Positions 9,891-58,501 of a stretch of 64,000 nt of DNA are shown here, piece by piece; the stretch's first letter is position 1; each line of letters begins with the position of its first letter. The stretch is from Candidatus Latescibacterota bacterium (GTDB lineage Bacteria > Latescibacterota > UBA2968), in NCBI GenBank assembly GCA_965198115.1, contig OZ240241.1, positions 32,001 through 96,000 on the forward strand. Reading direction: 5' to 3'. The notes under the pieces are model-generated. The model did no database searches. It saw nothing but the letters and a program-made list of their open reading frames with translations, and had not been told where the DNA came from. The position numbers and the translations under genes were made by a program.

Positions 9891-9929
9891 GGTTACCTCC
9901 AATTCAGGGGCATTCACACCTTGCCCGGA

Positions 9930-14345: not shown

Positions 14346-16727
14346 ATGATTAAAACATACTTTGCGCTGTGGATCCGAAACATTCGCAGGGACAGTCTGC
14401 AATCAGCAGTGAATATCTTCGGCTTATCGCTAGGAATGGCCTGCTGTATTCTGATTTTGTTGTACGTTCAGAGTGAGTCGAGCTACGATCAAAGTCACCA
14501 TAGTGGGGATAGGATTTTTCGTCTTGCGCAAGAGGTCGAGATTTCGGGAAGGACAAGATCTGTCGCTATTACGACCTATCCTATGGGCGAAGCATTAGTA
14601 GAAGAATACCCTGAGGTTTCAGAAATCGTCAGATTTAGAAAGGACGATGGAAGGACTCTTGTGGAGATCGGGAAAGACCGGTTCTTCGAGACAGGCGTAT
14701 TGTTTGTGGAGCCGAATGTCTTTAGAGTCTTCGACTTTCCTTTAGCAAGTGGGGATGCGCATGATGCGCTACGTAACCCGAGTTCCGTGGTCATTGCAGA
14801 ACACAGAGCTAAGAAGTACTTCGGGTCAACGAATGACGCATTGGGGCAGTCCCTAGTTATTGGCGGCGAATCCTACCAGATTTCAGGCGTAGCGGCGGAT
14901 ACGCCCGCGAAGAGCCACATCGAGTTTAATTTTCTGATTCCACTGTTGGAGGGTCGAGGGTGGTTGGATTTCAGGTACAAGTACTACACCTACATAGTCT
15001 TGGAGACGGAATCTTCGGATAAAGAGCTTAACGCAAAGCTGCCCGAATTCATCGAAAGACATCTTGGCGATCAACTACGAGCGGGGAGAATGGAACTTTC
15101 GCTCTTTCTGCAGAAGGTGACAGATATACATCTTCATTCGAACCTTGAGTACGAGATCAGCGGAAATGGTGACATACGTAGGCTTAGGATTTTTGCGGCT
15201 GTAGCAATCATGGTGCTTCTACTTGCTTGCTTCAACTATGTGAACCTATCAACTGCGCGCGCTGAGAGGCGTTTGAGAGAAATCGGGCTTCGAAAGACCG
15301 TAGGGGGAGGTCGTTCACAAATCTTTGGGCAGCTCCTTGGTGAGTCGTTCTTCCAGGCGTTGCTTGCTATGATGATCTCATTGCTATTGGTTGAGGGGGC
15401 AATTGGGGAATGGGGTGGTCTGCTTGATCTTAGGGTGACCTCTCCTTGGGGAGGGAGCTGGGCTGCGTGGCTAGTACCTCTTGGAGTTGGGCTGTTTTCG
15501 GGAATTCTCTCGGGAAGCTACCCAGCCGTTATCCTATCATCCGTTCGTCCCACCGAGGCTGTACTTGGATCATTTAAGACAAGATCAGCCTTACGCCGCA
15601 TTCTTGTTGTTTTTCAGTTTGTCATCTCTGGAGTCCTCATGATTTGCACTTGTGCGGTGTATAATCAGTGGGAATTCATGCGGACGAAATCTCCAGGATT
15701 TCAAAAGGAGAACATAGTTGTTATCCCTCTGGCAGGTAAAGATGACCGTGTAATTGATCAGTACAAGACAGCCATTCGAGCATACTCGCAGGTGATCAGC
15801 GCATCCGCATCCTCTATGGTTCCGGGTCGCGAGATTGCTAGTGGCCTTTTCCGGTCGTCCTCAGACAAGGAGAAGACCGAGCCACTCATGGTTAACTTGA
15901 TTAACGTCGTAGATCACGAGTTGGTCGATACATACCGCTTCAGCGTTTTAAAAGGGAGAACGATGCGCGACACCGACCAAGGAGTGGTCTTCTTGATCAA
16001 CGAATCTGCTCTGAGGATGTTTGGATGGAGTTCGATCGAAGGTCAGCAGCTGGAACAAGTCTATCCGGCGGGGGATGAGTTGAATGTCGAGGCTGTAGGG
16101 CCAGTGATAGGTGTTGTGGAGGATTTCCACTACCAATCCCTACATCATCTCGTCGAGCCCCTAGTTGTTGCGAATCTCCAGGAATGGGTCCAGTACCTCT
16201 CGATTCGAATTACAGGAGATGAGTTTGGGCGTACGCTGGTTTACCTTAGCGACCAGTGGCGCACCATCTCGCCTGAAACTCCATTTGAGTATTTTCTTCT
16301 TGATGCCGATCTGGAAAAACTATACCTCAAGGAGGAACGACAGAGCGCTATGCTCGGTGCATTCGCGGCAATTGCCATCATGTTGGCTGGCATGGGAATG
16401 TTCGGCCTAGTGTCGCAAACGACTCGACAGAGGATCAGGGAAATCGGAATGCGCAAGGTGCTTGGCGCGAAAAACTGGCAGTGCGCAACAGTCCTGCTTG
16501 GAAGACTCCTGCTGCTCTTGGGGATTTCGAACGTGATCGCATTGCCCATAGCATACATCGCATTCCGCCAATGGGTGCGTGATTTTCCATATCAGACGGA
16601 GATAGGTTCTCTCCCGTTCCTCATTGCGGCGGGTATGACTCTTCTAACCACGGTCGTCGCGATAGCCCACGAAATAAGCATTACCGCCCGAACAAGCCCG
16701 ATTGCAGTATTGCGGCGGGCCGATTGA
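14346..16727 (+). CDS. ABC transporter permease, MacB/FtsX family (duplicated architecture)
   Basis: 793 aa with NIFGLSLGMACC, LLACFNYVNLSTAR..R.REIGLRK and a second RIREIGMRKVLGA module. Confidence 0.93.
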   Translation: MIKTYFALWIRNIRRDSLQSAVNIFGLSLGMACCILILLYVQSESSYDQSHHSGDRIFRLAQEVEISGRTRSVAITTYPMGEALVEEYPEVSEIVRFRKDDGRTLVEIGKDRFFETGVLFVEPNVFRVFDFPLASGDAHDALRNPSSVVIAEHRAKKYFGSTNDALGQSLVIGGESYQISGVAADTPAKSHIEFNFLIPLLEGRGWLDFRYKYYTYIVLETESSDKELNAKLPEFIERHLGDQLRAGRMELSLFLQKVTDIHLHSNLEYEISGNGDIRRLRIFAAVAIMVLLLACFNYVNLSTARAERRLREIGLRKTVGGGRSQIFGQLLGESFFQALLAMMISLLLVEGAIGEWGGLLDLRVTSPWGGSWAAWLVPLGVGLFSGILSGSYPAVILSSVRPTEAVLGSFKTRSALRRILVVFQFVISGVLMICTCAVYNQWEFMRTKSPGFQKENIVVIPLAGKDDRVIDQYKTAIRAYSQVISASASSMVPGREIASGLFRSSSDKEKTEPLMVNLINVVDHELVDTYRFSVLKGRTMRDTDQGVVFLINESALRMFGWSSIEGQQLEQVYPAGDELNVEAVGPVIGVVEDFHYQSLHHLVEPLVVANLQEWVQYLSIRITGDEFGRTLVYLSDQWRTISPETPFEYFLLDADLEKLYLKEERQSAMLGAFAAIAIMLAGMGMFGLVSQTTRQRIREIGMRKVLGAKNWQCATVLLGRLLLLLGISNVIALPIAYIAFRQWVRDFPYQTEIGSLPFLIAAGMTLLTTVVAIAHEISITARTSPIAVLRRAD

Positions 16728-19747: not shown

Positions 19748-20209
19748 GTCCTGATCGAGCGGGGAGCTGTTTCACTCATTTCGTATCAAGGAGAGACCGG
19801 TATGAAAGTGCTCAAGAAGCCAGTAGTGGCGCCCAGTGAGCAGGAGCTGCTCTACGAGGCGCTGGATTGCACCGAGGAGTGCTGTAGAGGCGGATGTCGG
19901 GTCAGAATCTTCGACACCGATGATACAGACGACATCCTCTTCTAAAGAACGGCAGTCAAGTTAGGAGTGCCTGAAGTTAGGAGACTCGTAAGCTCTAAAG
20001 TTGTAGGCCACAAAGCGGATCTCCTGATTAGGACAGAATCACCAAGATCTCCAGTATGGGATCAACTGTAGTGAATTAGCTGTTCTCGTCTCATGGGCAG
20101 AATGCGACCTAAGCATGAGGTCGCTTCGTGTGAGGGTCATCCGTGCGGCGTAAGAACTCAGACGAATCTCCACTCTTGAAATGAGAGTAGTTCCCCGTTC
20201 GATCAGGAC
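19748..20209 (+). promoter_or_regulatory. Long-range inverted repeat (19748-19768 with 20189-20209) enclosing the precursor ORF
   Basis: GTCCTGATCGAGCGGGGAGCT pairs with AGTTCCCCGTTCGATCAGGAC over 21 contiguous bp with two G-U pairs. Extended by CTCATTTC / GAAATGAG. Confidence 0.8.
19802..19945 (+). CDS. Putative RiPP precursor peptide, 47 aa, not in the ORF track: MKVLKKPVVAPSEQELLYEALDCTEECCRGGCRVRIFDTDDTDDILF
   Basis: Translated by hand from ATG 19802 to TAA 19943-19945. Strong RBS AAGGAG upstream. Basic leader, C-x3-CC-x3-C core, acidic tail. First ORF upstream of the radical SAM/SPASM gene. Confidence 0.85.
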   Translation: MKVLKKPVVAPSEQELLYEALDCTEECCRGGCRVRIFDTDDTDDILF

Positions 20210-20240: not shown

Positions 20241-21743
20241 ATGAAATGCAGTGTGTACAACCTCATTATAGACCTTGGAGAAGACGATCGATACTTGCTC
20301 TTTAATACGCTTTCGGGAGCGCTGATTGAAGCAGAAGCCGATGTAGCACATATGCTAAAGAGACATATTGAGCCGACCCCAACTCCGAGATTGCAGCAGA
20401 CCTTTTCAGAAAACAAACCAATTCCTGAAAATGCTATCGCAGGCATTGACGAAGAACGTAGAGGGGTTTTGTCAGACTGTGGATTCTTGGTAGAAGACCA
20501 GAAGGATGAAGTCGCTGAAGTGAGGGAACTGGATGTCACCCGATTTGCGGCTAATCGAGATGCTGATCGGGGAACACTCTCGCTCACGATCCTGCCCAGT
20601 ATTCGATGTAATTTCGAGTGCTTCTATTGCTTTGAACCGTTGTCCCTAAGGCAGCAAGATAGTTCGATGACTGAGGAGGTTCAGGACAAGCTATGTACAT
20701 ACGTTGCGGAGAAGCTTCCGCTGCCAGAAATCAGAAAACTTAGCACAACGTGGTACGGTGGAGAACCTCTTCTCTACCCTCAGATCGTCGATTCTCTGCA
20801 GCGACGGATGAACGCGATTGCGGATGCGGAAGGCGTAAATGTGAAGAGCTCCATCGTCACGAACGGGTTTCTCTTGAGCCGAGATAACAGCGATATGCTT
20901 GTGGAGAACGGCATCACGACCGCCCAGGTAACACTCGACGGCCCTGCCAAAATTCACAATAAGAGGCGGCTGTACACACCAGATAGAAACGCGAACTACG
21001 ACACAATCCTTACCAATCTCGCTAATGCAAACCCCGAGATGGATGTCATCATCCGCGTCAATGTCGGATCACACAATTCTGAGACAATAGAAGAATTGGT
21101 AAACGATCTCACCGAAGCTCGAATCTGGCCTTACCGACGGGGAATCGGTGTCTACTTGGCTCCCGTAACTGGAGGTAAAGACTCACTACCTCGAGGGGAA
21201 TATCTATCCCTTGAAGATGATTTCCGACTGGATATGGTCCGCAAATTCAACGAGTTGACCGATGGACCTAGAGCGAAGCTCGAGTTCAAACTTCCTTCGC
21301 TCACTAACATTTCTCAATGCGGTCACATAGTGGACGAAAAACACATCTGGGTGGTTGATCGTGTGGGGGATGTTTTCCGGTGCTGGGATGTTCCTGGCCA
21401 GGAGAGTCATTGTGTTGGCACGTTGGATGACCTGATTCACGATAGGATCAACGGGCTCAATCGTTGGGTCATGAATCCAGAAATACGTGAGGAGACGGGA
21501 TGCTATAAGTGCAAGATGGCCCCAGTATGTACTGTCCCCTGTCCCTCGCATTACTTCTCTGAATGGAAATCTGGCGAGTATCTCGGAAAATACGACGACG
21601 GAAATCCTTTTTGCTGCGATTGGAAATTCGGGATCGAGAACAGGCTAGCTTCCGAGTACAAGTTCTACTCTGAGTCTCCTGAGTTGGTCTATGGGTTTCC
21701 AGGTGAAGGTAGCACGGAGAACTTACTCCAGATTGCTGACTAA
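20241..21743 (+). CDS. Radical SAM/SPASM peptide maturase
   Basis: CNFECFYC motif, WYGGEPLL, VTNG, QVTLDG. SPASM cysteines (C..GDVFRC..CYKCKMAPVCTVPCP..C). RRE-like N-terminus (YLLFNTLSGALIE). RBS AGGAGG. Confidence 0.95.
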   Translation: MKCSVYNLIIDLGEDDRYLLFNTLSGALIEAEADVAHMLKRHIEPTPTPRLQQTFSENKPIPENAIAGIDEERRGVLSDCGFLVEDQKDEVAEVRELDVTRFAANRDADRGTLSLTILPSIRCNFECFYCFEPLSLRQQDSSMTEEVQDKLCTYVAEKLPLPEIRKLSTTWYGGEPLLYPQIVDSLQRRMNAIADAEGVNVKSSIVTNGFLLSRDNSDMLVENGITTAQVTLDGPAKIHNKRRLYTPDRNANYDTILTNLANANPEMDVIIRVNVGSHNSETIEELVNDLTEARIWPYRRGIGVYLAPVTGGKDSLPRGEYLSLEDDFRLDMVRKFNELTDGPRAKLEFKLPSLTNISQCGHIVDEKHIWVVDRVGDVFRCWDVPGQESHCVGTLDDLIHDRINGLNRWVMNPEIREETGCYKCKMAPVCTVPCPSHYFSEWKSGEYLGKYDDGNPFCCDWKFGIENRLASEYKFYSESPELVYGFPGEGSTENLLQIAD

Positions 21744-21807
21744 GGCTGAACTGATTTCGGACTTTATGAAGCTTCTGACGCCGATCTCTTTTCTGGGAAG
21801 CTGCGAA

Positions 21808-23679
21808 ATGAAATTGCTGGGTCTGAGGTTTGTGCTTGTAGTATGGATCACTACTGCTTGCACATACGACGTTACCGCAGCAGAACCGTACGACCTAAGC
21901 TACAGCGTATTCGCCCAGGACTCCGTGCTGTACAGATGGAACACGTCGGAAGGAGTGGTAGATGGTATGCTGGTCCGCCACAGATTCCCTCCCTTGGAAC
22001 TCTGGGAGACATACCTATCGGAGGGGCTAGAAGCTCAGGAATACACGGAGAACGTGGTCTTCGCCTCGCGGGATTCCTCTGTTTATGGATGTGGCTTTGG
22101 AATAGACTATCCAGTCCTCATACCCCGGAACGTACATCCGTACCTGACGGCACGCATATACGCTGATGGGCTTGGGCCCATTAAAGTCTGGATCCAGCTC
22201 CAGAACGATTGGATTTCCGTTCCCAAGGTAATCTCCGCCAAGGGCTACGACAAGATTGAGATAGGCCTAGGTAAACTGATAGGTTCTAGTAGGAAAATTT
22301 CCGGCGTGAAGATGATCGCTGAACGAAGGAGCTTGAATGGCAGACTCATCGTTGGGGCTGTTCAGGTGACGACGAGGAGATTCCTAAAATGGCGATTTGG
22401 GGATAGGAGACCCGTTCCTATCAGGGCCCCATTGGGTGGCAGAGGCCCATTCGAAAGCTGGCCTCAGTGGGTGGGGTCTTTCGGTGATGGACCGGCGTTG
22501 AGATTTGGTGGTGGAACTGTCCCGGCGATGGCCAACCTGATGTCTGATCTGTTAAGAAAGTATTCTCGATACAGCATGAAGGACGTTAGTGTGAGCCAGG
22601 TGCTACGCCAACACGAGCAGCTTCTGCGTCCAGATATTGGGATCATAGAGTATTTAGATGGGCTGGAAGAGATCCTCGTACCACTCGGTGATACTCATTT
22701 TCGAGTTAATAGACCGACCTACAGACACAGTACAACTCAACTCAATGATGTTGTGAAGTTCTATAGAATTGACGGACGTGTTATCGTTTCCGCTGTCTTC
22801 AGTCCTCGTCTTCAAAAGGTGATCTCGGAAGGCGACGAAGTCACTGCCGTTGACGAAATGCCCATTGAGGATCACATAACGACAAGAACTATGTCCCTGG
22901 CAGGATCTACGGATTGGATCCGGGACCGGATCGTGATCGAGCGGCTGCTGACCAAGGAGGACTCTGTCGCAACTACAAGGGTCACCTTTCGGCGACCAGA
23001 TGGACAAGAGTATTCGATTGAACACCATACGAGCGATAGTCTGATGAGAGTCATCCCAAAGAATTTTCTAAAGGGAAGGTTCCACTACAAAGAGTTGGGA
23101 GAGTTCGCATACATACGTATAGGCACCTGGAGCGAAAAGACCTGGCCGTTCTTCTACTCCTACATTGACCGACTGAAAGAGAGCAAGGGGCTAATTCTTG
23201 ATCTGCGGAGTAATGGTGGAGGAGACCTTTCCTTCTGTAGAATCGCTTCGTGCTTTGTAGACAAGCCATCAGTGATTTTCTCCGTTTGCAACATCGAAGG
23301 TGAGGGGGTCGAATCCATTCTTTTAAGACCAGATCCCTTCTTCTTCTATCGTGGCCCGGTTGCTGTCCTAGTGGATACAAGAACCGGCTGTGCTTCAGAG
23401 TTATTCGTGAGTGCGATCAAAAGGTATCACAAGGACACCATAGTAGTCGGTCAGAGCCCGACAAGTGGCGCAGTCGGTTTCATCAGAACGATATCGCTTC
23501 CGGGAGGGAACGAGATCACCTTTCCTGAACCCGTTTTGGACGCCTACAGTCGTGATCTCGAAGGAGTTGGTGTACAACCAGATATGAAAGCCAGCTTCGA
23601 ATCATACCGGGACCTTGCACCTTATGACGATTCGCTTCTCGATCTTGCTATAGAGGCTCTTGCTCATCGTGCTATGTGA
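21808..23679 (+). CDS. S41-family peptidase, probably exported (start uncertain: 21766 or 21808)
   Basis: LGDTHF, PDZ-like GDEVTAVD, YIRI, LILDLRSNGGG, VLVD..TGCASE, VVGQSPTSGA, EGVGVQPD. Hydrophobic N-terminus MKLLGLRFVLVVWITTAC. Confidence 0.88.
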   Translation: MKLLGLRFVLVVWITTACTYDVTAAEPYDLSYSVFAQDSVLYRWNTSEGVVDGMLVRHRFPPLELWETYLSEGLEAQEYTENVVFASRDSSVYGCGFGIDYPVLIPRNVHPYLTARIYADGLGPIKVWIQLQNDWISVPKVISAKGYDKIEIGLGKLIGSSRKISGVKMIAERRSLNGRLIVGAVQVTTRRFLKWRFGDRRPVPIRAPLGGRGPFESWPQWVGSFGDGPALRFGGGTVPAMANLMSDLLRKYSRYSMKDVSVSQVLRQHEQLLRPDIGIIEYLDGLEEILVPLGDTHFRVNRPTYRHSTTQLNDVVKFYRIDGRVIVSAVFSPRLQKVISEGDEVTAVDEMPIEDHITTRTMSLAGSTDWIRDRIVIERLLTKEDSVATTRVTFRRPDGQEYSIEHHTSDSLMRVIPKNFLKGRFHYKELGEFAYIRIGTWSEKTWPFFYSYIDRLKESKGLILDLRSNGGGDLSFCRIASCFVDKPSVIFSVCNIEGEGVESILLRPDPFFFYRGPVAVLVDTRTGCASELFVSAIKRYHKDTIVVGQSPTSGAVGFIRTISLPGGNEITFPEPVLDAYSRDLEGVGVQPDMKASFESYRDLAPYDDSLLDLAIEALAHRAM

Positions 23680-23736: not shown

Positions 23737-24969
23737 GTGAGGTTTCTGTTTTGCCCTATGGCAACATATGGATTTGTCTATCCGGCCATCGGAATCGCGC
23801 TAGAACTGAGTCGAAGGGGGCATGACGTTGCTTTCGTGACCGATAAGTCGTTCGACCACGTTCTAGCAGGTGAGGGGTTGCGAAGGATTCCAAACGGACG
23901 AAGTGATAGAAGAAGCTTCATTATCGGGGACTGGGGCGAACCTGTCAGTGTCTGTTCTCAGGTTCGTCACATTCGATTCGCACTTGATGAATTTCGACCG
24001 GACGCGTGTGTGTCGTCGATTTTCTGTTTCGGAGCGCTGATAGCCAGGAAGTTATACGACCTACCCACGGCGGTGATAGGGCTTTGTACCTATATGTTTG
24101 CCCACCCGGATGACCTCAGGACCCAAAGCGAGATTACTCCCTCTACGCGATCACTACAGCTCTCTGATGGATTCAGAGAAACCTACAATACTACCGGTCG
24201 CCTGTTTAAGATACCGGAAATGGGGTTGTGCGAATTTATTGAAGAGATGCCGGTACTTGGAGACCTGTTTCTGCTTCAGAATCTTGATGATCTCATCGAA
24301 GATTCAGATAGGTTGCCGGGACGAGTGCATCTAGTAGGACCGTGTGGCTGGGATTCGCCAACCACAGATTCGGAGCTTGTCGACTGGATCAGGCAAGGAC
24401 CGGCAGCGGGAGATCCGATTATCTACGCGCAGCCGGGGGCACTCTTCGGGGCAAATTCGTTCTGGCCGGTCCTGACCAAGGCGCTGGAAGACGAAAGTGT
24501 GAGAGTAGTGGCCTCGGTTGGTAGGATGACGGGGAACGGTGATTACTCAAGCCTGCCTTCAAACTACTTCGTACGCGCACACGTGCCCCACCGACTCGTA
24601 CTCCAGGTTGCAGATGGCGTTGTAACAGAGGGGCACACCAGTATAGTTCTCGCAGCACTCTCAGCAGGAGTGCCTTTGATGCTCATTCCTCACGGCGGCG
24701 AGGAGTTTGATTGCGCTGAAATGTGTATCCGCGCGGGTGTCTGTGTCGGGATCAACCATGAGGAGTTGTCTCGTAACAATATGAAGCTGAAGCTGCGTGA
24801 TCTCCTTCAGAGGACTGATATCCGAGAGCGTTCTACGAGGATTAAAACACTCATCCAAAATAACAACGGCCACAGTCGCGCAACAGACTTGATCGAAATT
24901 TTAGGCATGGAAAGGAGACAGATCCTCCGCTCTTCGCTTTCGGCAAAGAATGTGCATTTGTCACCTTAG
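23737..24969 (+). CDS. Glycosyltransferase family 1 (MGT/macrolide-GT-like)
   Basis: N-terminal MRFLF...IALELSRRGHDVAFVT and a C-terminal NDP-sugar box (VPHRLVLQVADGVVT...ALSAGVPLMLIP). Confidence 0.88.
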   Translation: MRFLFCPMATYGFVYPAIGIALELSRRGHDVAFVTDKSFDHVLAGEGLRRIPNGRSDRRSFIIGDWGEPVSVCSQVRHIRFALDEFRPDACVSSIFCFGALIARKLYDLPTAVIGLCTYMFAHPDDLRTQSEITPSTRSLQLSDGFRETYNTTGRLFKIPEMGLCEFIEEMPVLGDLFLLQNLDDLIEDSDRLPGRVHLVGPCGWDSPTTDSELVDWIRQGPAAGDPIIYAQPGALFGANSFWPVLTKALEDESVRVVASVGRMTGNGDYSSLPSNYFVRAHVPHRLVLQVADGVVTEGHTSIVLAALSAGVPLMLIPHGGEEFDCAEMCIRAGVCVGINHEELSRNNMKLKLRDLLQRTDIRERSTRIKTLIQNNNGHSRATDLIEILGMERRQILRSSLSAKNVHLSP

Positions 24970-26600: not shown

Positions 26601-28319
26601 TTGGAGGAAGATCAGACAGGTCTGATGAAGATGAGGCGAATGGCCGCGGGGGTTTACCCACACGCAATTGGCTTAGGAATCGTCTCAATAGTCGGTGTCT
26701 CGGTTGGGATCGCCAAGCCCGTGGTTTTTTCTAGAGTAATAGACCAGGGGCTTGTCGAAAACGACTGGGATACGACGTTTCGTCTTACGAAGTACCTTGG
26801 TCTAGTAGGTCTCTTTGGACTACTGACATCCTCCATCCACCGGATCCTCGCAAGTTACATTTCGAATAGAATCGTTGAGAATATGAGGAACTGGCTAGTA
26901 GCCAGAGTCTTCGTTCTACAGTATGAACACTTCGTCCAAACTCCCAGAGGGGAAATCCTGGCCACAATCGAGGACGATTGTGCCAACATAAGGGAATTCT
27001 CAGTTTCTACTCTGCAGTCAGCGATGAGAAGCTTCCTTAGCTTTGTCGCGGCCATATGCTATGTCGGGTGGGTGCAATGGAAGATGCTATTGGCTGGAGC
27101 CCTTGCCGTACCATTTATGGCCATCTGCATGAGATTGTTCCGAAGGGTTGTATATGAGTGCGGATCACAAGTGGCTGAAGCAAGAGCTGTGGCTAAGAAC
27201 TCTCTGGTGAATACTGTAGAGAGCATGAGTTCATTAAGGCAATTGGGCTTATCCGATTGGTCGCGTGATGTTATTCGAGGTGATCTTGGGAAGCTTCGGA
27301 GGAGTAGTATCCGTGAGCAAGTATGGGAGAGCCTGACCGAACTGTCCTCGGGTTCTGTCTCATTGTTTAGCTATTTGGTGATTCTGGGATACGGTGGGTT
27401 GCTGGTTTCAACTAATGAGATAGGAATAGGGCATCTACTTGCCTTCCTAACGATGAGGCAAAGTTTTTTTGCGCCATTGGATTTCGTTGATCGTGTCTAC
27501 AAAGGTTACTTCAAGGCCAAACGTTCTCGCGAACGGATTGATTCACTGTCCAGCCAGCCACTCGAGACCGGTTTCCACGGTGGGGATAGCATCCCCGACG
27601 ATTTCCATCCGCATTCCCTATCCATCGAAGACGTATCATTCTCGTTCGGAGACAAGGCTCTGCTATGCTCGGCCAATGCGACATTCACCACAGGGTGGAA
27701 CGAACTAAGAGGACCCAATGGATCAGGCAAGACAACACTCCTAGGAATCATTCTCAAAGTCCGTAACCCTCAACAGGGCCGGATCTTTGTGGACGGTTAC
27801 AATGTTGCGAACTTCAACAACCGCAGCTGGCGAAGCCACATTTCTGTTGTTGCACAGGAGCCCTTCATATTTCAAGGGACACTGAGGGAGAACCTTAGAC
27901 TTTTCGATGAGAACATTGATGACTCTATGATTGATAGCATGCTTGAGCAGGTAGGTCTTCGAAAGTGGTGCGAAGAGAGGGGGCTCGACACAGAACTATC
28001 CCAAGGCGGAAGCGAAATTTCAGGAGGACTTAAGCAACGTTTGGCGATTGCCAGAGCTCTTCTGAGAAGCTCCGCCGTCTACATTTTCGATGAGCCAGTT
28101 TCCCAGGTCGACTTGCTTACGAAAGGAGACTTGCTTCGCGTGATGAAGAGATACACTCGCGGCGCAATTGTGATAGTTATATCCCATAGCGATCTTAGAG
28201 ATGTAGCGGACCGGATCTTTCACGTGAAGGATGGCCGAGTCAAAGGCGAAGAGGTTAAGCCCGAAGCTCTGTGTGAGCTAGATCCGTCGGTGCAAGGCGT
28301 TGTCGGACATCCATCCTAA
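26601..28319 (+). CDS. ABC exporter, fused membrane and ATPase domains (no C39 peptidase domain)
   Basis: N-terminal transmembrane helices. Walker A GPNGSGKTT, signature ISGGLKQR, Walker B YIFDE. Start could be 26601 or a nearby ATG. Confidence 0.92.
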   Translation: MEEDQTGLMKMRRMAAGVYPHAIGLGIVSIVGVSVGIAKPVVFSRVIDQGLVENDWDTTFRLTKYLGLVGLFGLLTSSIHRILASYISNRIVENMRNWLVARVFVLQYEHFVQTPRGEILATIEDDCANIREFSVSTLQSAMRSFLSFVAAICYVGWVQWKMLLAGALAVPFMAICMRLFRRVVYECGSQVAEARAVAKNSLVNTVESMSSLRQLGLSDWSRDVIRGDLGKLRRSSIREQVWESLTELSSGSVSLFSYLVILGYGGLLVSTNEIGIGHLLAFLTMRQSFFAPLDFVDRVYKGYFKAKRSRERIDSLSSQPLETGFHGGDSIPDDFHPHSLSIEDVSFSFGDKALLCSANATFTTGWNELRGPNGSGKTTLLGIILKVRNPQQGRIFVDGYNVANFNNRSWRSHISVVAQEPFIFQGTLRENLRLFDENIDDSMIDSMLEQVGLRKWCEERGLDTELSQGGSEISGGLKQRLAIARALLRSSAVYIFDEPVSQVDLLTKGDLLRVMKRYTRGAIVIVISHSDLRDVADRIFHVKDGRVKGEEVKPEALCELDPSVQGVVGHPS

Positions 28320-28339
28320 AGGAACCGTGGAGGATAGGA

Positions 28340-29175
28340 TGGAAAACACATTAGATGTTGTTAGACGGCCAGACGTTTCGCCGGAAACATACTTGAAACT
28401 ATATGGGAAACCGAACAAACCATTTGTCATTGCGGATGGCGCAGAGGAATGGAAGGCCCGATCAACCTGGAACATGAGATTCTTTGAAGAGCGTTATGGA
28501 GATGTCAGACTGCAGGTGACACGGATAGCGAGAGGGAGAACGGAATCCGCTGGTGTAAAGACCATAGCTGAATACGCAGACTACCTCCGCACTCAGAACC
28601 ATGAAAAGGAGCCACTCTATCTCCGAGATTGGGTCCTGGAAGAGAAGTACCCTGAGCTTCTTTCTCACATCTCCGTGCCTTCCTATCTATGCAACTGGCT
28701 TGACCGTATCCCGATTAGCGGCAGTCGTAGACACTTCTGGCGAGGTTGGAAAGGTTGGATTTTCATCGGCCCAAAAGGAACTGGAACTGAGCTCCATACG
28801 GACGTTGTTAAATCCTCGGCCTGGCTGGCCCTCATAAGTGGACAAAAGGAGTGGGTATTAACCCCACCTAACGAACACGATCCAGCCACGTTTGCTAAAG
28901 TCGACCTGCTAAATCCTGACTATGAAGCCTATCCCTTCCTTCGGAATTCGAAGAGGATCTGCTACACCCAGCGTCCAGGAGAACTATTAGTCGTCCCGAG
29001 TGGATGGTGGCATCAGGTCTGTAACTCTGATGCCACCATCTCTGTTTCTGGGAACTTCATAAATGAATCCAACATACACTTCTTCTGTAAGGACTTGCTT
29101 GAGAACGGATCACTTGCTGAACTCAGAGACTACTCATGCTACATTCCAGAGATAGTCCCCTTTTTAGCATCCTAG
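28340..29175 (+). CDS. JmjC/cupin-8 Fe(II)/2-oxoglutarate oxygenase (second copy)
   Basis: YLRDW, GPKGTGTELHTD, GQKEWVL, PGELLVVPSGWWHQV. Paralog of 9060-9890. ATG 28340 follows GGAGG. Confidence 0.92.
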
Positions 29176-30705: not shown

Positions 30706-32613
30706 GTGAGTGTCAAAGTAGCTGTCATAGACAGTGGGCTGTGCGAGTCCCATCCCAAGTTAAAAGGGGTACGCGTCACGGACCGCGTGTCGGTAGGAAG
30801 CGACGGGATTTCTCGAGGATGTACCAGCGATGTTTGGGGACACGGTACGGCCTGCACGCAGATAATTCACAGTGTTCTGGATAGAGAGCTTCGTAGGAGT
30901 TGTGAGTTCAAGATCGTAAAGGTTTTTGATCGCCAACTGGTGGTTAGTCAGGACATCCTTCTAAAAGCCCTCCTGTGGTGTATGGATTCGGGCGTAGACG
31001 TAATTAGTGTGAGTATCGGCGTTCGGGCGTCCTCGCCTCCCCAAGAGCTTGTGGACCTCTGTCTTGAGGCACATTCGAAAGGCATCATACTAGTAGCGCC
31101 AGACCACAACGAAGGGGATGGCCCATGCTACCCAGCGTCACTTTCGCATGTCTTTGGCGTTACAGGCGGAGTTTTGAGATCACGGCGTGAGTTTGGTGTT
31201 AACGAGGAGAGCGATATTGAGTTCGTTGGTCGGGGAACCAATCAACGTGTGGCGTGGATCAATGACTCCTACATCTTCGACAGCGGGACAAGCTTTGCCT
31301 CTGCGCAACTAGCAGGAATAGTGTGCAATGTAAGAGCGCAGTTTCCAGAATCTGATCCGTCAGAATTGAAAGCACACCTCATGTCAATTGGACTTAGAGG
31401 TGTGCCTATTACCAGCAGGTTTGTCTCTGCCGGAACAGGCACCGGCCGCTGGGCGCCCCAGGGGACAGACACGATTGAAGAGGTGGTCGAGCGGAATTTT
31501 TCACCCAAAAGATTCAGCTGGATGCGACGCGCTGCTCTCTATCCAGTATGTAACAAAGAATTTCACGCGATCGAGCACTTCAGTAGGCAATGCCAGTTTG
31601 AGCTTGTGGAAATTCTGGACTTTCCAAAGGGAGTGATTTCCCACCGAGATATTGAGATCGATGGAAGGAAATACACGAAAAAGTGGCGAGTAAGTGATAT
31701 TGAAAGGTCGTTTGATACCCTCATTGTTGGATATCCATACGAGACGCCCTTTGGCGCTGATCACAAGGCCTATAAAGACATCTTAGACCAGGCCTGGCAT
31801 ACGGAGTGCAACTTCTTTTGTCTTAGCGGCGATGTAGAGAAACAATTGCAAAAGGAAAGGGACAGCCTCGGTAAGGTGTCGTCACAGATTTACTGTCCAA
31901 GGGTTGACACAGCTGACCTTCAACGACTTGCGTGTCTCCAAAGTGAAGGTGAGACAACAAGACCGGTTCTCGCAGTAGTGGGGACAAATGAAAAGCAGGG
32001 CAAGTTCTCGCTTCAGTTGCGTATAAAGAAGGTCATGGAAGATGCAGGATATGAAGTAGGTTGGCTATCCACCGAGCCGCAAGGTGAGCTTTTCGGCGCC
32101 TCGTTTGCATTTCCGTATGGTTACAATGGAACGGTCGCTCTCAATCCGCACGACTGGCCCGTAGCCGTCTCGTGCGCGATTCGTGGGATAGAAATGGCCG
32201 GTAGCCCAGACATCATTATCACGGGCCATCAATCAGGTCTACTGCCCTACACCAGAGGAAATTTGGCGGACATCTATCTGCAACACTTGACATTCCTGAG
32301 TGGCTGTCGCGCTGATGCCGCTGCGTGCGTGATAAGTCCAGAAGATGACATCAGGACAGTCGAGGATGTTATTGGTGTCCTGCAACATCTCCTGCGAGTC
32401 CCGGTGCTCTTTTTCGCACTGCATCGAAACGTGAGATCACTTGGGACTCTGGACAGTGGGAAGAATTATGTAAAAGTAAGGAGATTGAAGGAGGCAGAGT
32501 GGCAGGAACGCGCGAGGGAACTTAGGTCTCGGTTCGGCATTCCTGTAATTGATTCTCACAGTGAACATTATGACAGTGACATACTTCGAGCAGTGGAGGA
32601 CTGTTTTGCCTGA
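30706..32613 (+). CDS. S8 (subtilisin-like) peptidase fused to a DUF1611-like P-loop domain (TIGR04066-like peptide maturation protein)
   Basis: Catalytic triad motifs VAVIDSG, GHGTAC, SGTSFA. C-terminal VLAVVGTNEKQGKFSLQL, STEPQGELFG, PDIIITGHQSG. Confidence 0.85.
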   Translation: MSVKVAVIDSGLCESHPKLKGVRVTDRVSVGSDGISRGCTSDVWGHGTACTQIIHSVLDRELRRSCEFKIVKVFDRQLVVSQDILLKALLWCMDSGVDVISVSIGVRASSPPQELVDLCLEAHSKGIILVAPDHNEGDGPCYPASLSHVFGVTGGVLRSRREFGVNEESDIEFVGRGTNQRVAWINDSYIFDSGTSFASAQLAGIVCNVRAQFPESDPSELKAHLMSIGLRGVPITSRFVSAGTGTGRWAPQGTDTIEEVVERNFSPKRFSWMRRAALYPVCNKEFHAIEHFSRQCQFELVEILDFPKGVISHRDIEIDGRKYTKKWRVSDIERSFDTLIVGYPYETPFGADHKAYKDILDQAWHTECNFFCLSGDVEKQLQKERDSLGKVSSQIYCPRVDTADLQRLACLQSEGETTRPVLAVVGTNEKQGKFSLQLRIKKVMEDAGYEVGWLSTEPQGELFGASFAFPYGYNGTVALNPHDWPVAVSCAIRGIEMAGSPDIIITGHQSGLLPYTRGNLADIYLQHLTFLSGCRADAAACVISPEDDIRTVEDVIGVLQHLLRVPVLFFALHRNVRSLGTLDSGKNYVKVRRLKEAEWQERARELRSRFGIPVIDSHSEHYDSDILRAVEDCFA

Positions 32614-32866
32614 TGGTACGGACAACATCAGGGGGAAGTTGGTCGAATTAAGCAAGGAGTTTATGCCTGACTCTTCGATTGTCGACGATACGGAGAGACT
32701 CATCGTAATTGGATCAGAATCTGTTAGGGCGATCGAGTTTCTCATGGCAATCGAGGATGAGTTCGAGATTGAGATAGAAGATGACGCGCTTACTCCCGAT
32801 TTTTTCTCCGACTACACATTTATCTGCAAGGCAGTGGAAGAAGCCCTCGAAGTCTCACCTGAGTGA
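32606..32866 (+). CDS. Acyl carrier protein-like
   Basis: Acidic 86-aa ORF with IG-S-ES-VRAIEFLMAIEDEFEIEIED (phosphopantetheine Ser in ES rather than DS). TTG start after GGAGGA overlaps the upstream stop. Confidence 0.85.
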   Translation: MPDGTDNIRGKLVELSKEFMPDSSIVDDTERLIVIGSESVRAIEFLMAIEDEFEIEIEDDALTPDFFSDYTFICKAVEEALEVSPE

Positions 32867-32881: not shown

Positions 32882-33760
32882 ATGGTTCGGACATTTATTG
32901 TCGAAGAGCACAATGAGGCGTTCTTGGTTTGGAGTCGAGCAATTTCTGCTGGTCTCATACCAGCCACCGGGAACGAGCTAGTTCACGTTGACCAACATTC
33001 AGATCTTGATGCGCCAAGGCTAAAGAGATCTGTGAAAGACACTATGGATGACGATGAGCTACTGGAGTTTGTCTTTCGTGATCTAAGGATCGGAACCTTC
33101 ATCATTCCAGCTGTCTACCTGGGGTTGTTTAACTCGATTCAATGGGTCAAGAAACGCCACAATTTGGAGACCCAGAAAACGTTATTTGTCCGATCTTACA
33201 ACACTTCTGGAAAGAAACTCATCATACAAGATGAACTTCCACTAGGGATCGATCTCACAGATGATGACGTGCAGTCTTTTCAGCTTATTCGTCAGAATGT
33301 CGAGAACCTTGAGTGCACAAACGATGCCGTTCTAGACATAGACTTGGATTACTTCTCAGCCGAGGAAAACCCGGCGGAACGCACGGACTGCGTTGCCGAG
33401 ATAACTCGAGAAGAGTACTGGTCATTCCACAACGACAGATATCACCAGATTAACTATCTCGGACCAATCGTGGAAGCGGTAGAGAAGAACGGGAGATACT
33501 TTTACACCTTCAACATGTTCGATGAGATCTACCCCTCGCGTCTGGCTGTTGATGATGGGATCATTCAGCAGAGAGTTGAAGAACTCATCGAAGTACTCTC
33601 AAGAATCGAGCTTGTTCCTAAATTGATAACCATATGTCGTTCTGTGAAGAGCGGCCACACACCCTCCAGCCAGGGCCAACTGATTGAAACTATGGTGCTC
33701 AAAGGGCTTAGAGCATTGTACGAGATCGACCCACAGATGGTCGACGACTCACTCGCATAG
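32882..33760 (+). CDS. UPF0489-family metalloenzyme (arginase/deacetylase fold), candidate peptide arginase
   Basis: Motifs VEEHNEA, LVHVDQHSDL, IGTFIIPAVY, LDIDLDYFS, ITICRS..SGHTP. Confidence 0.8.
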   Translation: MVRTFIVEEHNEAFLVWSRAISAGLIPATGNELVHVDQHSDLDAPRLKRSVKDTMDDDELLEFVFRDLRIGTFIIPAVYLGLFNSIQWVKKRHNLETQKTLFVRSYNTSGKKLIIQDELPLGIDLTDDDVQSFQLIRQNVENLECTNDAVLDIDLDYFSAEENPAERTDCVAEITREEYWSFHNDRYHQINYLGPIVEAVEKNGRYFYTFNMFDEIYPSRLAVDDGIIQQRVEELIEVLSRIELVPKLITICRSVKSGHTPSSQGQLIETMVLKGLRALYEIDPQMVDDSLA

Positions 33761-33921: not shown

Positions 33922-36297
33922 GGTAAGCCCCCGGCTCTGCCGGGGAGACTCCCAGTGTTTGACAATTCCGGGAAATAGACAAGAGCCTTCCGATTCCGTG
34001 GACCGCTCAAAGCTCACGGAAGGAAGGCTCTCAATGAACGACCTTCAGAGTCTACGTCACACGGTATGGGAGTGCAAGTATCACGTTGTTTTGGGTTCCG
34101 AAGTATCGGAGAAAGTCTGTATGCGGAGCTTCGCCGGTATCTGGGAGAAGCTTTCCGCGATCTTGCCAAGGCAGAGGGAATCTCGTGTTGAAGAAGGTCA
34201 TCTGCGTCCGGATCACGTGCACATGTTGATTTCGATCCCGGCCGAAGCACTCAGTAGCTCAGACGGTAGGGTTCATCAAAGGAAAGAGTGCGATCCACAT
34301 TGCTCGGAACTACCTGGGACGTAGTTCGAACTTCACGGGGCAGCATTTCTGGGCAAGAGGCTACTGGGTCTCCACCGTTGGTAAGGATGAACAAATGGTT
34401 CGGGAGTTATATCCGGATGTCCGGCGTCAACCATTCTTCCCGCCGTGTTGCCTCACGTAGTAATGTTACCAGGTACAGAAGCTGCTGCATCAGACTCCGA
34501 TTTGCTGGTGTCGGAGAGAGTGTACTGGGGCGCCCCGGGTTCCAGATTGGCCCCACCGAAGATAAGTTTCCGGGCCATCGTACGGCGCCAGTCCCGTACC
34601 CGACGCTGTAGAGTGCGGAGTTGGCCGGGGGTGTACGTAGAGGGGTACTCCTGCTGAAGCCGCTCGAGGAGGGATTTGGCCGTTGCGTCGGGCTCCTCGA
34701 CTAACCACCCTTCCACCACGGGCCATACCGAGACGAAGGGATCCAGACGCGTACGCCAGTGACGGCCTGAGGCCGGGGGCAGTCGGTGTGTTGGCCGGGC
34801 TTCTCCCCCGCGCCACAGGGTGGGCAATTGTGATAGAAAGAGGGCAAGGTCGTCGTCGGTTGAGGACCCTTCAGTCGCTTCGTCCGGCGCAGAGAGCCGG
34901 GTTAGCGCGGACTGTGCTAAGCGGATCTCGTTAAGGAGCTGTAGGGGGTCCAACGAGGCCGAGAGTTCCTGAAGTCCTCGGATCTGGTCGTCCGCGATGT
35001 ATTCGGATGCCAACAATCGCTGGCAAGGGGTGGCCGGCGGATAGTAGTGCTTGATCACCTTGGCGCCCTGTCGGCTCTTCTCCTTGAGCTTGAAGGAGAG
35101 GGCTGGAAGCAGTTCACGCGTAGAGCCGGGAAACAGAGTAGAGACGGGACAGCGTCTGCGTGGCCTTGACCCCCTTCAAGCGCCCATACCCGACCAACCG
35201 CCGCACTACAGCCCCATTCTTCTGCTCGACCCAGGCCTGGTCATTCTTGCGATAGGGGCGCGAACGTGTCTGAGTGAGTCCTGCGTCTCTAGTGTACGTG
35301 AGCAGGCTATCGTTGATGAAGGCGCCGTCGTTGTCCGTATCCAGACCTATCAATGCGAAGGGAAGTTGGCCACGTACCATCTCCACGGCTTCTACGACCA
35401 AGCCCTGCTCTCGCACGAGCAGTGGCAGGCACTCCGTCCAGCCCGAAGCGATGTCGGTCAACACCAGAGTATGGACGCAACTGCCCTCGCTGTTGCCGCC
35501 GTTGTGGGCCACAAAGTCGGCTTCCATGAACCCAGGCCGTGGGTCGACCCAATCGCTGAAGGTGCGCACCGGAATCTGGCTACGCACAAGCCCATTGGAC
35601 TGACGGCGCCTGCGGCGGTCCGAGGTGGCAGCCCGCTGTGGCGCCAGGAGCCTATCGATCGTAGCCGCGCTGATGCTCAGCAGGAGCTCTCTCAGTTTGG
35701 CACCTAGAACCAGGTGACCATGCCGCTCCAAGGCCCCCACCAAGACCAGCATGAGGGCCTTGAGGCGCTTGCTGCAGATCCGGTCAGCTGACTCCCACAC
35801 GATGATGAGAGCCTCATGCACTGCCTCGTCGTAGATCCGAGAGCGAGGACGGCCCGAGCGGCGGTAGCACGTTTCACCACCGTTGAGAAGCCTCAGGGCG
35901 TGTTTGCGATGGTAGCCCGTCAGGGCCACGAACTCATCCAAAATCCTGCGCTTCTCGCCGCTTGAAGCCACCCGATATCGGCGTCCAACTTCCACCACGA
36001 GCTCCCGTTTGGTCGCCATGCTGATGCTCCTCGCCATTTCTGCTCCCGCGAAAGACAAAGGGGGTAGCAGAATATGTGAGGCAACGACCCCTCAGGGGTA
36101 GCAGAAACCCTGAGTCAATGCGGGTGGGAGTTCTAATTGTCGCTAATCAATCCAGAACCAGGAGCGGGAAGACCAGCGTCTCGACCAGTCTCAACATCTT
36201 CAGATAATCGCCCCCTTTAGGTGGCGCACACGGTCTTAAACCGCTTTGAGCGGTTCACAAGTTTTTCAAGCCTCCAGCTTTGCCGGAGGTCATGACT
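33922..36297 (+). mobile_element. tnpA: IS200/IS605-family element (tnpA pseudogene) interrupted by an rve-type IS
   Basis: Left hairpin CCCCGGCTCTGCCGGGG, HTVWECKYHVV, HUH motif PDHVHMLISIP, FWARGY. The tail (QEREDQRLDQ) and the right hairpin CCTCCAGCTTTGCCGGAGG resume after 36150. Confidence 0.88.
34418..36149 (-). mobile_element. rve/DDE-integrase-type IS, copy 2 (transposase 36058 to 34453, frameshift near 35110)
   Basis: GYHRKHALRLL, EADFVAH, LDTDNDGAF, SRPYRKNDQAWVEQKN. Same outer termini as 4503-5487. Flanks ATCCGGA / ATCCAGA. Confidence 0.85.
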
Positions 36298-36333
36298 ACA
36301 GTGAAAGTGGATGATGGGGGGGACATTTTGCAG

Positions 36334-37389
36334 GTGATGGTCGACATCCATTTAGATCCACCGATACGCACCTGGACCTACCACGCGTTTCGAATGTCAG
36401 TTTTAGGGAAGGGTCGTTTCTTTCGACCGTGGATCCTAAGCAATTTCATCCAGATGTGCTGTCGAGATTTGAGTGACTTCTCTTGGGAATCCTTAGAGGT
36501 GTACGAAGCCTATCTTGATGTACCGTATGGGTATAACTTCTTTTGTCCTGAAAAGTTCTACAATGCAGCGGGCTTGGTACAGCATTCAGTTGATAGAAAC
36601 CTGTTTAGCGAATGGACCGATGGAAGGCTGGCAGAATTCGTTTGTAGATCCATTGACCGCGGCTTCTGTTTTTACACATACCTCAACTATCAGTCCGTGC
36701 TCAGAGAGGGGAACACACCGATTCATCCATCGAAAAGTAACCATGGGACAATGATATGTGGCTATGATAAAAGTAAACGTGCATTCGCGATTTTGGGCTA
36801 TGAATCCGGGAGCTATGGTCTTTCTTGGGTGGACATTAACCTCGTAGAAAGCGCGTACCAAGAGACCTACCTTGAATCGATGAGCAGAGCCCATCAGACC
36901 ATCTGGCTATTGGGCAGAGACGATACTCCTTATTGGTTTAGCTTGGAAAAGGTGGCAGGACAGCTTCGTGACTATCTCGACTCTCAGAACAGGCTTGGAT
37001 TCGGAAGCCTTCTTGTTCAGCAGCCATCGTCACTATGTTATGGGTTGGAGACCTATGAGACGGGTCTCATTGGGCACTTAGGTGTAGTTCAGGAGAGGCC
37101 CAAACTCCTCTACTATCATCTTTTCCACGCTCTTAAGGAGCACAAGGCGCTGATGCTCGAAAGAATTCAACACCTCAATCATATGCGGATTGTTGATCAT
37201 AGGATAGTGGAGGAATACTCCTCGATCTTCAGATGGGCTGAAAATGTCAGAATGGTAATGCTAAAGTTCAGGATGAGACCAAGGAAAAAGACGCCAGATC
37301 GAATGATCAATAGATTGCGGGAAATGGCTGAGAAGGAGGCGGAGGTATTGGAAAAGACTTACCAAGCGATAAGTCAAGTGGGGGAATAA
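36334..37389 (+). CDS. Biosynthetic-cluster-associated protein, BtrH N-terminal-like (papain-like fold), start uncertain
   Basis: FVCRSIDRG..FYTYLN, HGTMICGYDKSKRAFAILGY, YGLETYE, LKEHKALMLERI resemble the BtrH-like proteins found beside ACP/NRPS genes. Recognised by eye. Confidence 0.5.
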   Translation: MMVDIHLDPPIRTWTYHAFRMSVLGKGRFFRPWILSNFIQMCCRDLSDFSWESLEVYEAYLDVPYGYNFFCPEKFYNAAGLVQHSVDRNLFSEWTDGRLAEFVCRSIDRGFCFYTYLNYQSVLREGNTPIHPSKSNHGTMICGYDKSKRAFAILGYESGSYGLSWVDINLVESAYQETYLESMSRAHQTIWLLGRDDTPYWFSLEKVAGQLRDYLDSQNRLGFGSLLVQQPSSLCYGLETYETGLIGHLGVVQERPKLLYYHLFHALKEHKALMLERIQHLNHMRIVDHRIVEEYSSIFRWAENVRMVMLKFRMRPRKKTPDRMINRLREMAEKEAEVLEKTYQAISQVGE

Positions 37390-38655: not shown

Positions 38656-38903
38656 GTGGCTACGCAATCCTTCCCGCAGTCGCTCCCTGCTTCTCCGTCG
38701 CTGTCCCAACTCAAACTTCAGGCAAAAGAACTCCGTTCGGGCTATCAGTCCGGTGATGAGGACGCGGTCGCACGGGCGAAAGCGTCGCATCCAAAACCGG
38801 ACCAACTGAATGGATCGGGTCTTTCTCAAGCTGACACTCGTTACGGCCCGTGAATACGGGTTTCCCAGCTGGCCGCGTCTCAAACGTCACGTCGAGGAAT
38901 TTA
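38656..38903 (+). pseudogene. N-terminal domain typical of ankyrin-repeat and related proteins (LP..PSL.QLK.QAK.L...AREYGF.SW), frameshifted and truncated
   Basis: LPASPSLSQLKLQAKEL, then AREYGFPSWPRLKRHVEE in a shifted frame. RBS AAAGGAG. Confidence 0.7.
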
Positions 38904-38928
38904 GTCGCGCCAGCGGCTAACTAAACCT

Positions 38929-39091
38929 TGGTAAGCCCCCGGCTCTGCCGGGGAGACTCCCAGAGTTTGACAGTTCCAGAAATATGTAAGAGCCTCCCTT
39001 GCCGTGGACCGCTCAAAGCACACGGAAGGAAGGCTCTCTAATGAGCAACGTAAGGAGTCTACGTCACACGGTTTGGGAGTGCAAGTATCAC
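38929..39091 (+). mobile_element. IS200/IS605 left-end fragment
   Basis: Near copy of 33922-34085 (hairpin plus SLRHTVWECKYH), truncated. Confidence 0.8.
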
Positions 39092-39385
39092 GTACAATGT
39101 GCTGCTGGCACTCCGGATTTGCTTTTAAAAATTCACCGAAGCTGAAATCCTCGGAGTAGAACGCGTAGACCAGTTTCCGAATCGTTTCCATGCCTTGAAG
39201 ATACTCGGTCAGGAATCGGCCGAGACGCTCGCCCGAAAGGTCCCCCTCCCGAAGACCATCGACGATCGCATCGGCCGCCATTTCGCCCGACTCGAGCGCC
39301 AGAAAGATGCCGGATGAATAAACGGGGTCGAGGAATCCGAACGCGTCGCCCACGAGCACCCAGCCGTCTCCCGCAATACGGGCTT
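39092..39385 (-). pseudogene. Fragment of a flavin-dependent halogenase / GGR-like oxidoreductase
   Basis: GDGWVLVGDAFGFLDPVYSSGIFLA motif, no N-terminal half. Confidence 0.75.
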
Positions 39386-54591: not shown

Positions 54592-54880
54592 GGTGGAGCC
54601 AGGAAGAAGGTCACGGCAGCGTCGGGGTGCGGAGGTTGAGGTAGGGTTGTGACGTGAACCGTTGTCCGTAATCTGTTGGCCGGGAAAACTCCCTCGGAGA
54701 GGTCTGGGAGTAGGACCTAGGACTGACATAGACCGGAATAGCTTGGGAACGAGAACGGCTCGAGTACCTCATGGTACTCAAGCCGTTTTGCATTTTGTCC
54801 ATACGTCGTAGGGACGGTTCGCGAACCGTATTTACCAGCGATTCGTGTTACGTCTTCTTGACCGTGCCGCCACGGACGTC

Positions 54881-55771
54881 CTAGCCGATGCGTTCGCCGG
54901 AGATCCAGGTTTTTACCCCGTTCGAGGCGAGATAGGGGAGCGGCTTGCCGGCGGTGTGGGTGCCTGGACCGTAGAGAACGGCTTGTTGTTCCGGGGTGAG
55001 CTCGTTGACCCAGTCGCCGTGACGTTCTTGAGGCGTGAAATAGCGGCCCACGTCCCTGCAGGCGGCTCTTTCGGTGTACTTGTAGAGGACGGATCGCCGG
55101 TCGTGATCGGCGATCCATTGCCAAGGTGCCGTGTGTGGCGTTCTCGGTAAAGAAGACGACGTCTCCGGCTTTCATTTCGGGCTGAACGACGAGGCCCATG
55201 TCGTCTTCCACCGTGTCGAGTCCGTCGGGTTTGGGTTCGTTGGACTTGTGGCTGCCAGGTACGATGCAGAAGCCGCAGCTCCCGCCGGCGCATCTGTGAA
55301 CTGCCAGGTCACAGTCACTGCGCGGGCGAAAATCTGTCCATTCTGGTGGTGATACCAGTCCCTTGGACTGAAGGGCTCGCCCGCACAGTGCAGCGTGCCC
55401 CCGTCGGTCCCTTTCTGTCCACTGATGAGCCAGGGACCGTGGTCGAGGCGGAAGCCCTTGCCACAGAATGCGGTCAGTCGGGCGACGACGACGGGATGGA
55501 CGAGTAGCTTCCGGAACGGTTTACGATACTCGTCGGGCCACTCGAGGATGCCCCACAGTTCGCTGCGTCCAGCCTTCCCGACGGTCAGCGCTTTCGACCC
55601 CCTGGTCTGGGATCCCTGTGGACGTACGGCGAGTTGGTTCGCGTGGTGGTCAATGGCGTCGTTGCATGCCTTGATTTTCTCGTCGGTCAGGACGTTGTGG
55701 ACGACGAGGTAGCCGCGAAGGTCGAAGTAATAGAGCTCTTCATCGGTGACGACATGTTTTGGCGTTGCCAC
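54881..55771 (-). pseudogene. PhyH-family dioxygenase paralog 6 (frameshifts near 55265 and 55120)
   Basis: FDLRGYLVV, FRLDHGP, then PGSHKSN and AGDVVFF..THGTL in shifted frames. Stop at 54881. Confidence 0.85.
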
Positions 55772-55774
55772 GGT

Positions 55775-56635: not shown

Positions 56636-56655
56636 ATCGGTGGCCTCCTACGAAC

Positions 56656-58474: not shown

Positions 58475-58501
58475 CGATGAGGTTTCCTTCGCTTAGGAGG
58501 A

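Follow-up and report, generated by a model that had tools for sequence, protein, structure and literature searches.

A candidate peptide arginase in an IS-interrupted DD(I/V)LF-type cluster of a Candidatus Latescibacterota bacterium

We found that the gene at 32882–33760 (+ strand) of the window, i.e., of the whole 64,000-nucleotide stretch of Candidatus Latescibacterota DNA analyzed here, encodes, judging from its sequence, a new representative of an enzyme family already known, and that its cluster, of a known orphan type, carries unusual extra tailoring genes. The reading that we favor, at a probability of roughly 0.6, is that a two-manganese arginase makes ornithine from arginine residues of a precursor peptide ending in DDILF as a tailoring step, and that the ornithine side chains are probably left as free amines. 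The enzyme would hydrolyze arginines of the precursor encoded at 19802–19945 to ornithine and urea, an activity ascribed to it by analogy with FlmR and OhkR; a radical SAM enzyme would cross-link the conserved cysteines, and S8 and S41 proteases would trim the peptide. An acyl carrier-like protein (ACP), an S8-DUF1611 fusion and a CtaG-fold protein may act on a group common to all such clusters, while a BlmD-type enzyme would O-carbamoylate a sugar or hydroxyl supplied by glycosyltransferases and JmjC enzymes. The proposal that a radical SAM-cyclized ornithine peptide either receives an acyl group of the ACP through a CtaG/BtrH-fold transferase that lacks the cysteine or is converted to citrulline in two steps is tentative, and we think it rather improbable.

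The arginase and its relatives

The arginase gene is a single open frame of 292 aa with the motifs EEHNEAF (from residue 8), HVDQHSD (residue 35) and LDIDLDYFS (residue 151). Alignment with OspR, the peptide arginase of landornamide biosynthesis, gives an intact set of six predicted Mn ligands (H10, D37, H39, D41, D152 and D154), the counterparts of which in OspR are His12, Asp39, His41, Asp43, Asp165 and Asp167 (numbering of PMC10028609); the glutamate beside the first ligand histidine is also conserved between the two proteins. All three family motifs, EEH(N/H)EAF, DXHXD and LDIDLDYFSC, are present, with the last cysteine of the third replaced by alanine at a position that is not a ligand. 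The first-pass annotation had recognized a UPF0489 arginase-like enzyme from the EEH, HVDQHSD and DIDLDYF motifs, had named OspR as belonging to this family and had suggested a PF12640 profile search as a check. The reading of the open frame agrees with this, the PF12640 profile scores 67 bits (gathering cut-off 27), and the OspR structure 8BRP, which shares the six ligands, is the sole PDB relative (E = 4e-50). The only NCBIfam family matched is NF052474 (FlmR/OhkR peptide arginase), over the full length and with 311.9 bits (E = 4e-93), a score that does not reach the cut-off of 350; other DD(I/V)LF arginases score 296–356 bits, two of them below this cut-off (333 and 296.5). Identity to OhkR, confirmed as WP_159453773.1, is 42%. 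No other PF12640 gene was found in the genome. A public contig spans 30562–33951 with no letter differences, and it may come from the source sample and is thus not independent.

Both arginase trees were built as quick searches. The second comprised 42 rows, i.e., 40 full-length locus rows together with OhkR and the arginase of genome G132, after duplicates, fragments and long branches had been dropped; OspR, FlmR and eukaryotic UPF0489 members are absent from the rows. In this tree, the window arginase joins two DD(I/V)LF arginases of the same class (SH-aLRT 86), and this group of three sits in a larger one with OhkR (support 88). It falls outside the clade linked to NHLP/Nif11 precursors (99) and apart from the distant homologs (100), and the earlier tree was similar. 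A grouping with UPF0489 proteins from outside biosynthetic gene clusters, which had been named beforehand as speaking against a role in peptide tailoring, was not seen, as a branch with support of 100 separates the distant group. The DD(I/V)LF arginases do not form one supported clade (two changes on the 42-row tree). Full-length arginases occur in 3 of the 168 genomes of the phylum; 400 sampled Bacteroidota genomes yielded no new full-length arginase, and plasmids no arginase match.

OspR thus shares family and metal ligands with the window enzyme, yet it acts on an NHLP precursor with lanthionine-forming and epimerase partners (PMC10028609), whereas the window arginase lies outside the NHLP/Nif11-linked clade of a tree from which OspR itself is absent. 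Among the loci collected, L039 and L048 are selidamide-like metagenome clusters with an NHLP-like precursor, a GNAT gene and an arginase in succession. In turn, a Moorena locus (L005:8308-10963) has two tandem UPF0489 genes beside LanM and a Nif11 precursor, one of which has altered motifs and is joined to a 2OG-Fe(II) oxygenase.

The DDILF precursor and the IS-interrupted island

The RGGCRVR stretch that had been pointed out as the core in which ornithines might be made lies within a 47-aa open frame (19802–19945, +), 13 kb upstream of the arginase. The peptide has cysteines at positions 23, 27, 28 and 32, arginines at 29, 33 and 35, and lysines only at 2, 5 and 6, so that its core is free of lysine. 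It ends in DDILF, and the cluster therefore belongs to the published orphan DD(I/V)LF family. For the defining members of this family, FlmR and OhkR were reported to turn core arginines into ornithine both in vivo and in vitro, at sites that include Cys-Arg and Arg-x-Arg contexts, while the final products are described there as unknown (PMC12703449). The contexts of Arg29, Arg33 and Arg35 resemble these modified sites. Of the eight arginase clusters in which a precursor was detected among the loci fetched, seven have an arginine-bearing core; locus L015 (8736–9571) encodes four Cys-rich precursors in tandem, each with ELLF as its end, and three of them have no core arginine. The idea of Arg-to-Orn conversion on the RGGCRVR precursor is well supported, and this chemistry is already published for FlmR/OhkR precursors of the same family (PMC12703449), and we regard the conversion, by analogy, as very likely here.

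With the multi-copy IS elements set aside, the region 2417–37402 has the following gene order, all on the + strand unless stated. It opens with a GT9-like glycosyltransferase (2434–4383), the ~285 N-terminal residues of which have no counterpart among Pfam families or Atlas clusters, a NodU/CmcH carbamoyltransferase of the BlmD subfamily (7350–8996), a JmjC hydroxylase on the opposite strand (9060–9917, −; 35% identical to the one mentioned below) and a MacB/FtsX ABC permease resembling flm orf2 and ohkJ (14346–16727). These are followed by the precursor, a radical SAM/SPASM maturase (20241–21743; best NCBIfam match FlmE/OhkG, 220 bits with a cut-off of 500), the flmF/ohkF-like S41 peptidase, a core gene of the family (21691–23679), and an MGT/EryCIII-like glycosyltransferase not found in the other clusters examined (23737–24969). 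Further downstream are an ABC exporter (26601–28319), a flmI/ohkL-like JmjC/cupin hydroxylase (28300–29175), a fusion of an S8 protease with a DUF1611 domain (30706–32613), the ACP (32549–32866; the longest open frame, with the true start probably later), the arginase and, beyond IS-derived DNA (33922–36125), a 362–369-aa frame at 36280–37389. GC3 of the cluster genes, except for the short precursor, is 0.50–0.58 against 0.66–0.74 for four flanking genes; this contrast fits a single foreign island, within which contiguity across the IS blocks is putative. Target-site duplications are unclear at most of these blocks and none clearly marks former contiguity, no IS-free joint between the arginase and the frame at 36280–37389 was found among the contigs, and scans for promoters and terminators gave no more matches than expected by chance.

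The IS load of window positions 1–48000 is extreme (ISL3, Mutator, IS200-like and others, with many copies in the genome), and the elements fall between the listed cluster genes, not inside them. Elsewhere in the window, repeat DNA holds a fragment of a flavin-dependent halogenase/reductase-like gene (38901–39359), and 54717–59401 contains tandem similar frames that look by eye like phytanoyl-CoA dioxygenases, with one weak NCBIfam match.

The radical SAM, S41, S8, cupin and ABC genes common to flm and ohk were all found here, and the likeness to these clusters extends to the PF12640 motifs, the DD(I/V)LF precursor with its conserved proline and two cysteines, the ACP-like gene, the exporter and the permease (PMC12703449). 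No counterpart of the hypothetical gene flmG/ohkH was recognized in the window cluster. In contrast to flm and ohk, the window has a single Cys-rich precursor with three core arginines, its arginase follows the ACP instead of preceding S41, and it adds two glycosyltransferases, the BlmD-type carbamoyltransferase and the CtaG-fold gene, while an ACP synthase, an LPLAT and a condensation domain were not found in the cluster. The host lineage also lies outside Bacteroidota, whereas the precursors of Table S5 in PMC12703449 are all from Bacteroidetes.

The ACP module and the CtaG-fold protein

The arginase was correctly described as the gene immediately after the ACP, since only 15 bp separate the ACP-like stop from the arginase start. 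The ACP scores 21.2 bits with PF00550 (cut-off 20.8), and its attachment serine is conserved in all eight aligned homologs. We determined, however, that the ACP is associated with the S8-DUF1611 gene rather than with the arginase. It is found in all nine clusters in which the region downstream of S8-DUF1611 is covered (the window, L002, L003, L004, L013, L015/L023, L072, G132 and G109; L014 and L018 end too early to be counted), and directly after S8-DUF1611 in seven of them. Among the eight arginase clusters with a visible ACP, in turn, the arginase follows it in two only, the window and L004, the latter being a locus of the Latescibacterota genome G058, which belongs to the same class as the window's genome. 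The usual position of the arginase is directly before S41, as in seven fetched loci as well as in flm and ohk. Neither an ACP loader nor a phosphopantetheinyl transferase was identified within the window.

The frame at 36280–37389, separated from the arginase solely by IS DNA, has no Pfam or NCBIfam match, and a PDB profile search was also empty. It resembles Atlas BtrH_N clusters (0.98; the family is present on 10–33% of their members), and its relatives score just below the PF14399 cut-off. A fold predicted from the single sequence had a pLDDT of 33.6, which rose to 85.7 with a 31-row alignment. The latter model superposes on CcbD and CtaG with Z of 17.7–18.8 (rmsd 3.6–3.9, 285–299 residues aligned), the best being CcbD (Z 18.8, rmsd 3.6, 297 aligned), while unrelated rows stay below Z 10, which points to a papain-like plus helical fold. 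CtaG/CcbD-type enzymes move carrier-bound acyl groups to amines by means of a Cys-His-Asp triad (PMC12865890). The predicted fold, an invariant histidine (His148, in 31 of 31 rows) and the ACP linkage are shared with these ligases; in contrast, sequence identity is only 6–14%, and cysteine is missing from the likely nucleophile site, which was placed by helix position and not by residue-level superposition (a cysteine at residues 19–35 occurs in 1 of the 31 rows and not in the window protein), so that the triad is incomplete. We refer to it as a candidate carrier-dependent transferase. When the other arginase loci were searched with a profile of this family, none gave a match, so that the search lends no support to a BtrH likeness of the flmG/ohkH-like frames.

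The CtaG-fold family is present in 38 of the 168 phylum genomes and overlaps with the three that encode full-length arginases only in the window's genome. Within 1.5 kb of 29 CtaG-fold loci, we found the ACP at 17, S8-DUF1611 at 18 and both at 15. S8-DUF1611, the ACP and a Cys-less CtaG-fold protein constitute a recurring triad in the phylum (L094–L122; L153–L159), the neighbors of which are often ABC/HlyD exporters, TPR proteins or CAAX proteases; seven 20-kb triad regions gave no radical SAM match. Peptide candidates with a shared leader were noted in L155 (13807 and 17199) and L159 (5658). The window's genome carries a second copy of the triad (G000:C1:3220837-3223816), in which S8-DUF1611 is split over at least two frames.

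In a rival reading, which builds on the acylation proposed in the first-pass annotation, the ornithines are acyl acceptors: the CtaG-fold protein or the DUF1611 domain would transfer an acyl group from the ACP to an ornithine side-chain amine, and the product would be a lipopeptide of the selidamide kind, made with no GNAT. There is precedent for such a reaction in the selidamides (KspR/KspN and PhaR/PhaN), where arginase-made ornithine is the acceptor (PMC8784127, PMC13647313) and acylation requires the earlier Arg-to-Orn conversion (PMC8784127). Moreover, ornithine would be the only core side-chain amine of a precursor with no core lysine, the ACP, arginase and CtaG-fold genes are consecutive once IS DNA is ignored, and the CtaG-fold model matches the carrier-dependent amide ligases. 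Genes of an acyl-transfer type seem interchangeable elsewhere, including condensation domains in flm orf3, L013 and L072, the LPLAT-like ohkE and a thioesterase in L003. DUF1611 we take to be a possible acyltransferase through its link to DgcN; paper searches gave nothing relevant to such a role, and its PDB search no convincing match (2G0T at E = 0.068). Yet selidamides need a GNAT, a LanM and an NHLP/Nif11 leader, none of which was found in the Pfam/NCBIfam scan of the cluster frames, and acyl-CoAs are regarded as the donors in their case (PMC13647313). The likely nucleophile cysteine is missing from the CtaG-fold protein, and the arginase tends to precede S41 rather than follow the ACP. The 15 loci with the complete triad belong to genomes with no arginase match. 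The clearest control is the sister cluster in G109 (G109:C1:520591-533813, L160), which retains the same module of S8-DUF1611, ACP and Cys-less CtaG-fold genes, together with S41, precursor, radical SAM and ABC genes, next to a core with neither arginine nor lysine; no arginase match was found in this genome, which is 93% complete, so its absence is not proven. As the module persists there in the absence of an arginase match and of core Arg or Lys, it does not need ornithine, and the freed N-terminus would most plausibly be its target. Acylation of ornithine from the ACP, although possible, is thus disfavored and in our view unlikely.

The carbamoyltransferase and the question of citrulline

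The remaining suggestion for the ornithines was a two-step route to citrulline, in which the arginase makes ornithine and the NodU/CmcH enzyme, encoded ~24 kb away, carbamoylates its side-chain amine. A related reaction is known for StdF, a NodU-like RiPP enzyme that carbamoylates a lysine side chain to homocitrulline (PMC13174530), and with which the window enzyme was compared by description. StdF carries a fused S8 domain (PMC13174530), whereas the window enzyme is a stand-alone, BlmD-like protein encoded far from the arginase. The window enzyme shares 48% identity over 539 aa (508 bits) with BlmD (Q9FB12) and scores only 163–193 bits with TobZ, GdmN and other solved members; the 90% cluster containing BlmD is among its best 120 relatives. 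BlmD is placed in bleomycin glycosylation (PMC7017467), and glycosyltransferases and hydroxylases are found among its neighbors, as in the window. Bleomycin itself is NRPS/PKS-made, and no sugar-nucleotide genes were identified in the window island. Among 104 genomes of one genus, two close relatives of the window enzyme were found, one encoded downstream of a JmjC gene and the other downstream of three glycosyltransferases, in either case with no arginase. At a strict E-value, no BlmD-type enzyme was found in 301 family-level genomes or in the 167 other genomes of the phylum, and viral contigs gave no match to the carbamoyltransferase pattern.

In favor of the two-step route, the gene shares the low-GC3 island with the cluster, its GC3 of 0.50 being close to the 0.51–0.58 of the other enzyme, transporter and ACP genes and unlike that of the flanking ones, and, with seven copies in the genome, the chance of one lying within 25 kb is ~4% if they are randomly placed. 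Against this, three IS blocks, with no clear target-site duplication, intervene between it and the precursor, and no tblastn match was found in 92 fetched loci, many of them duplicates, short stretches or loci of a type other than DD(I/V)LF, nor in 16 further 20-kb regions. The gene is absent or unlinked in five of five other whole-genome clusters. Where looked up in genomes, it lies 369 kb away in G168, on other contigs in G169, and at ~1.95 Mb and ~2.7 Mb in G132 and G109, with none in G058 and G170. The flm and ohk gene tables (PMC12703449) contain no carbamoyltransferase. The two-step route thus finds weak support, the enzyme being glycosylation-associated and unlinked to any other cluster examined, and we consider it quite improbable. 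As the island encodes a pair of glycosyltransferases and a pair of JmjC enzymes, O-carbamoylation of a sugar or hydroxyl is more likely than citrulline formation, and the carbamoyltransferase is predicted, from its subfamily, likely to act on such an oxygen rather than on ornithine.

Even less probable seems the view that the window arginase is merely carried along as a passenger, in an island that is decaying and has been reshuffled by IS elements, or that its substrate is not the window precursor. In favor of this view, G132 (G132:C1:698590-706086; L162, L163) pairs an intact-motif arginase with a precursor, the sole one found genome-wide, that has no arginine; this pairing also speaks against our favored reading, and the enzyme may sometimes be a passenger or serve a different substrate. 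The six IS blocks in the window island and the related G058 cluster, with its truncated radical SAM gene and no precursor detected, would fit as well. Against it, the listed cluster frames of the window read through at lengths usual for the family, the arginase ligands are intact, and the three core arginines stand in contexts like those modified by FlmR and OhkR. The G058 cluster (L004, G058:C2:637187-641600) appears to be a decayed sister that retains S8-DUF1611, ACP and arginase genes, and in G132 a Cys-bearing BtrH_N gene and a 370-aa frame were noted downstream.

As the arginase chemistry is already published for this precursor family, the enzyme of our favored reading, which forms ornithines that probably stay free, represents a useful extra catalyst and not a surprise. 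Among the papers searched, we found none that describes the final product of a DD(I/V)LF cluster, or an ornithine of this family bearing an acyl or carbamoyl group; relative to these papers, an acylated or citrulline route, if true, would be new for DD(I/V)LF peptides. The same peptide may additionally carry a bleomycin-style carbamoylated sugar. A carbamoyltransferase in the pathway, whether acting on a sugar or on ornithine, would be a rare case if true, StdF having been called only the second RiPP-associated example (PMC13174530). The G109 and G132 clusters represent naturally occurring knock-outs with which the function of the ACP can be probed, and the comparison supplies a candidate transferase and extends the DD(I/V)LF family beyond Bacteroidota.
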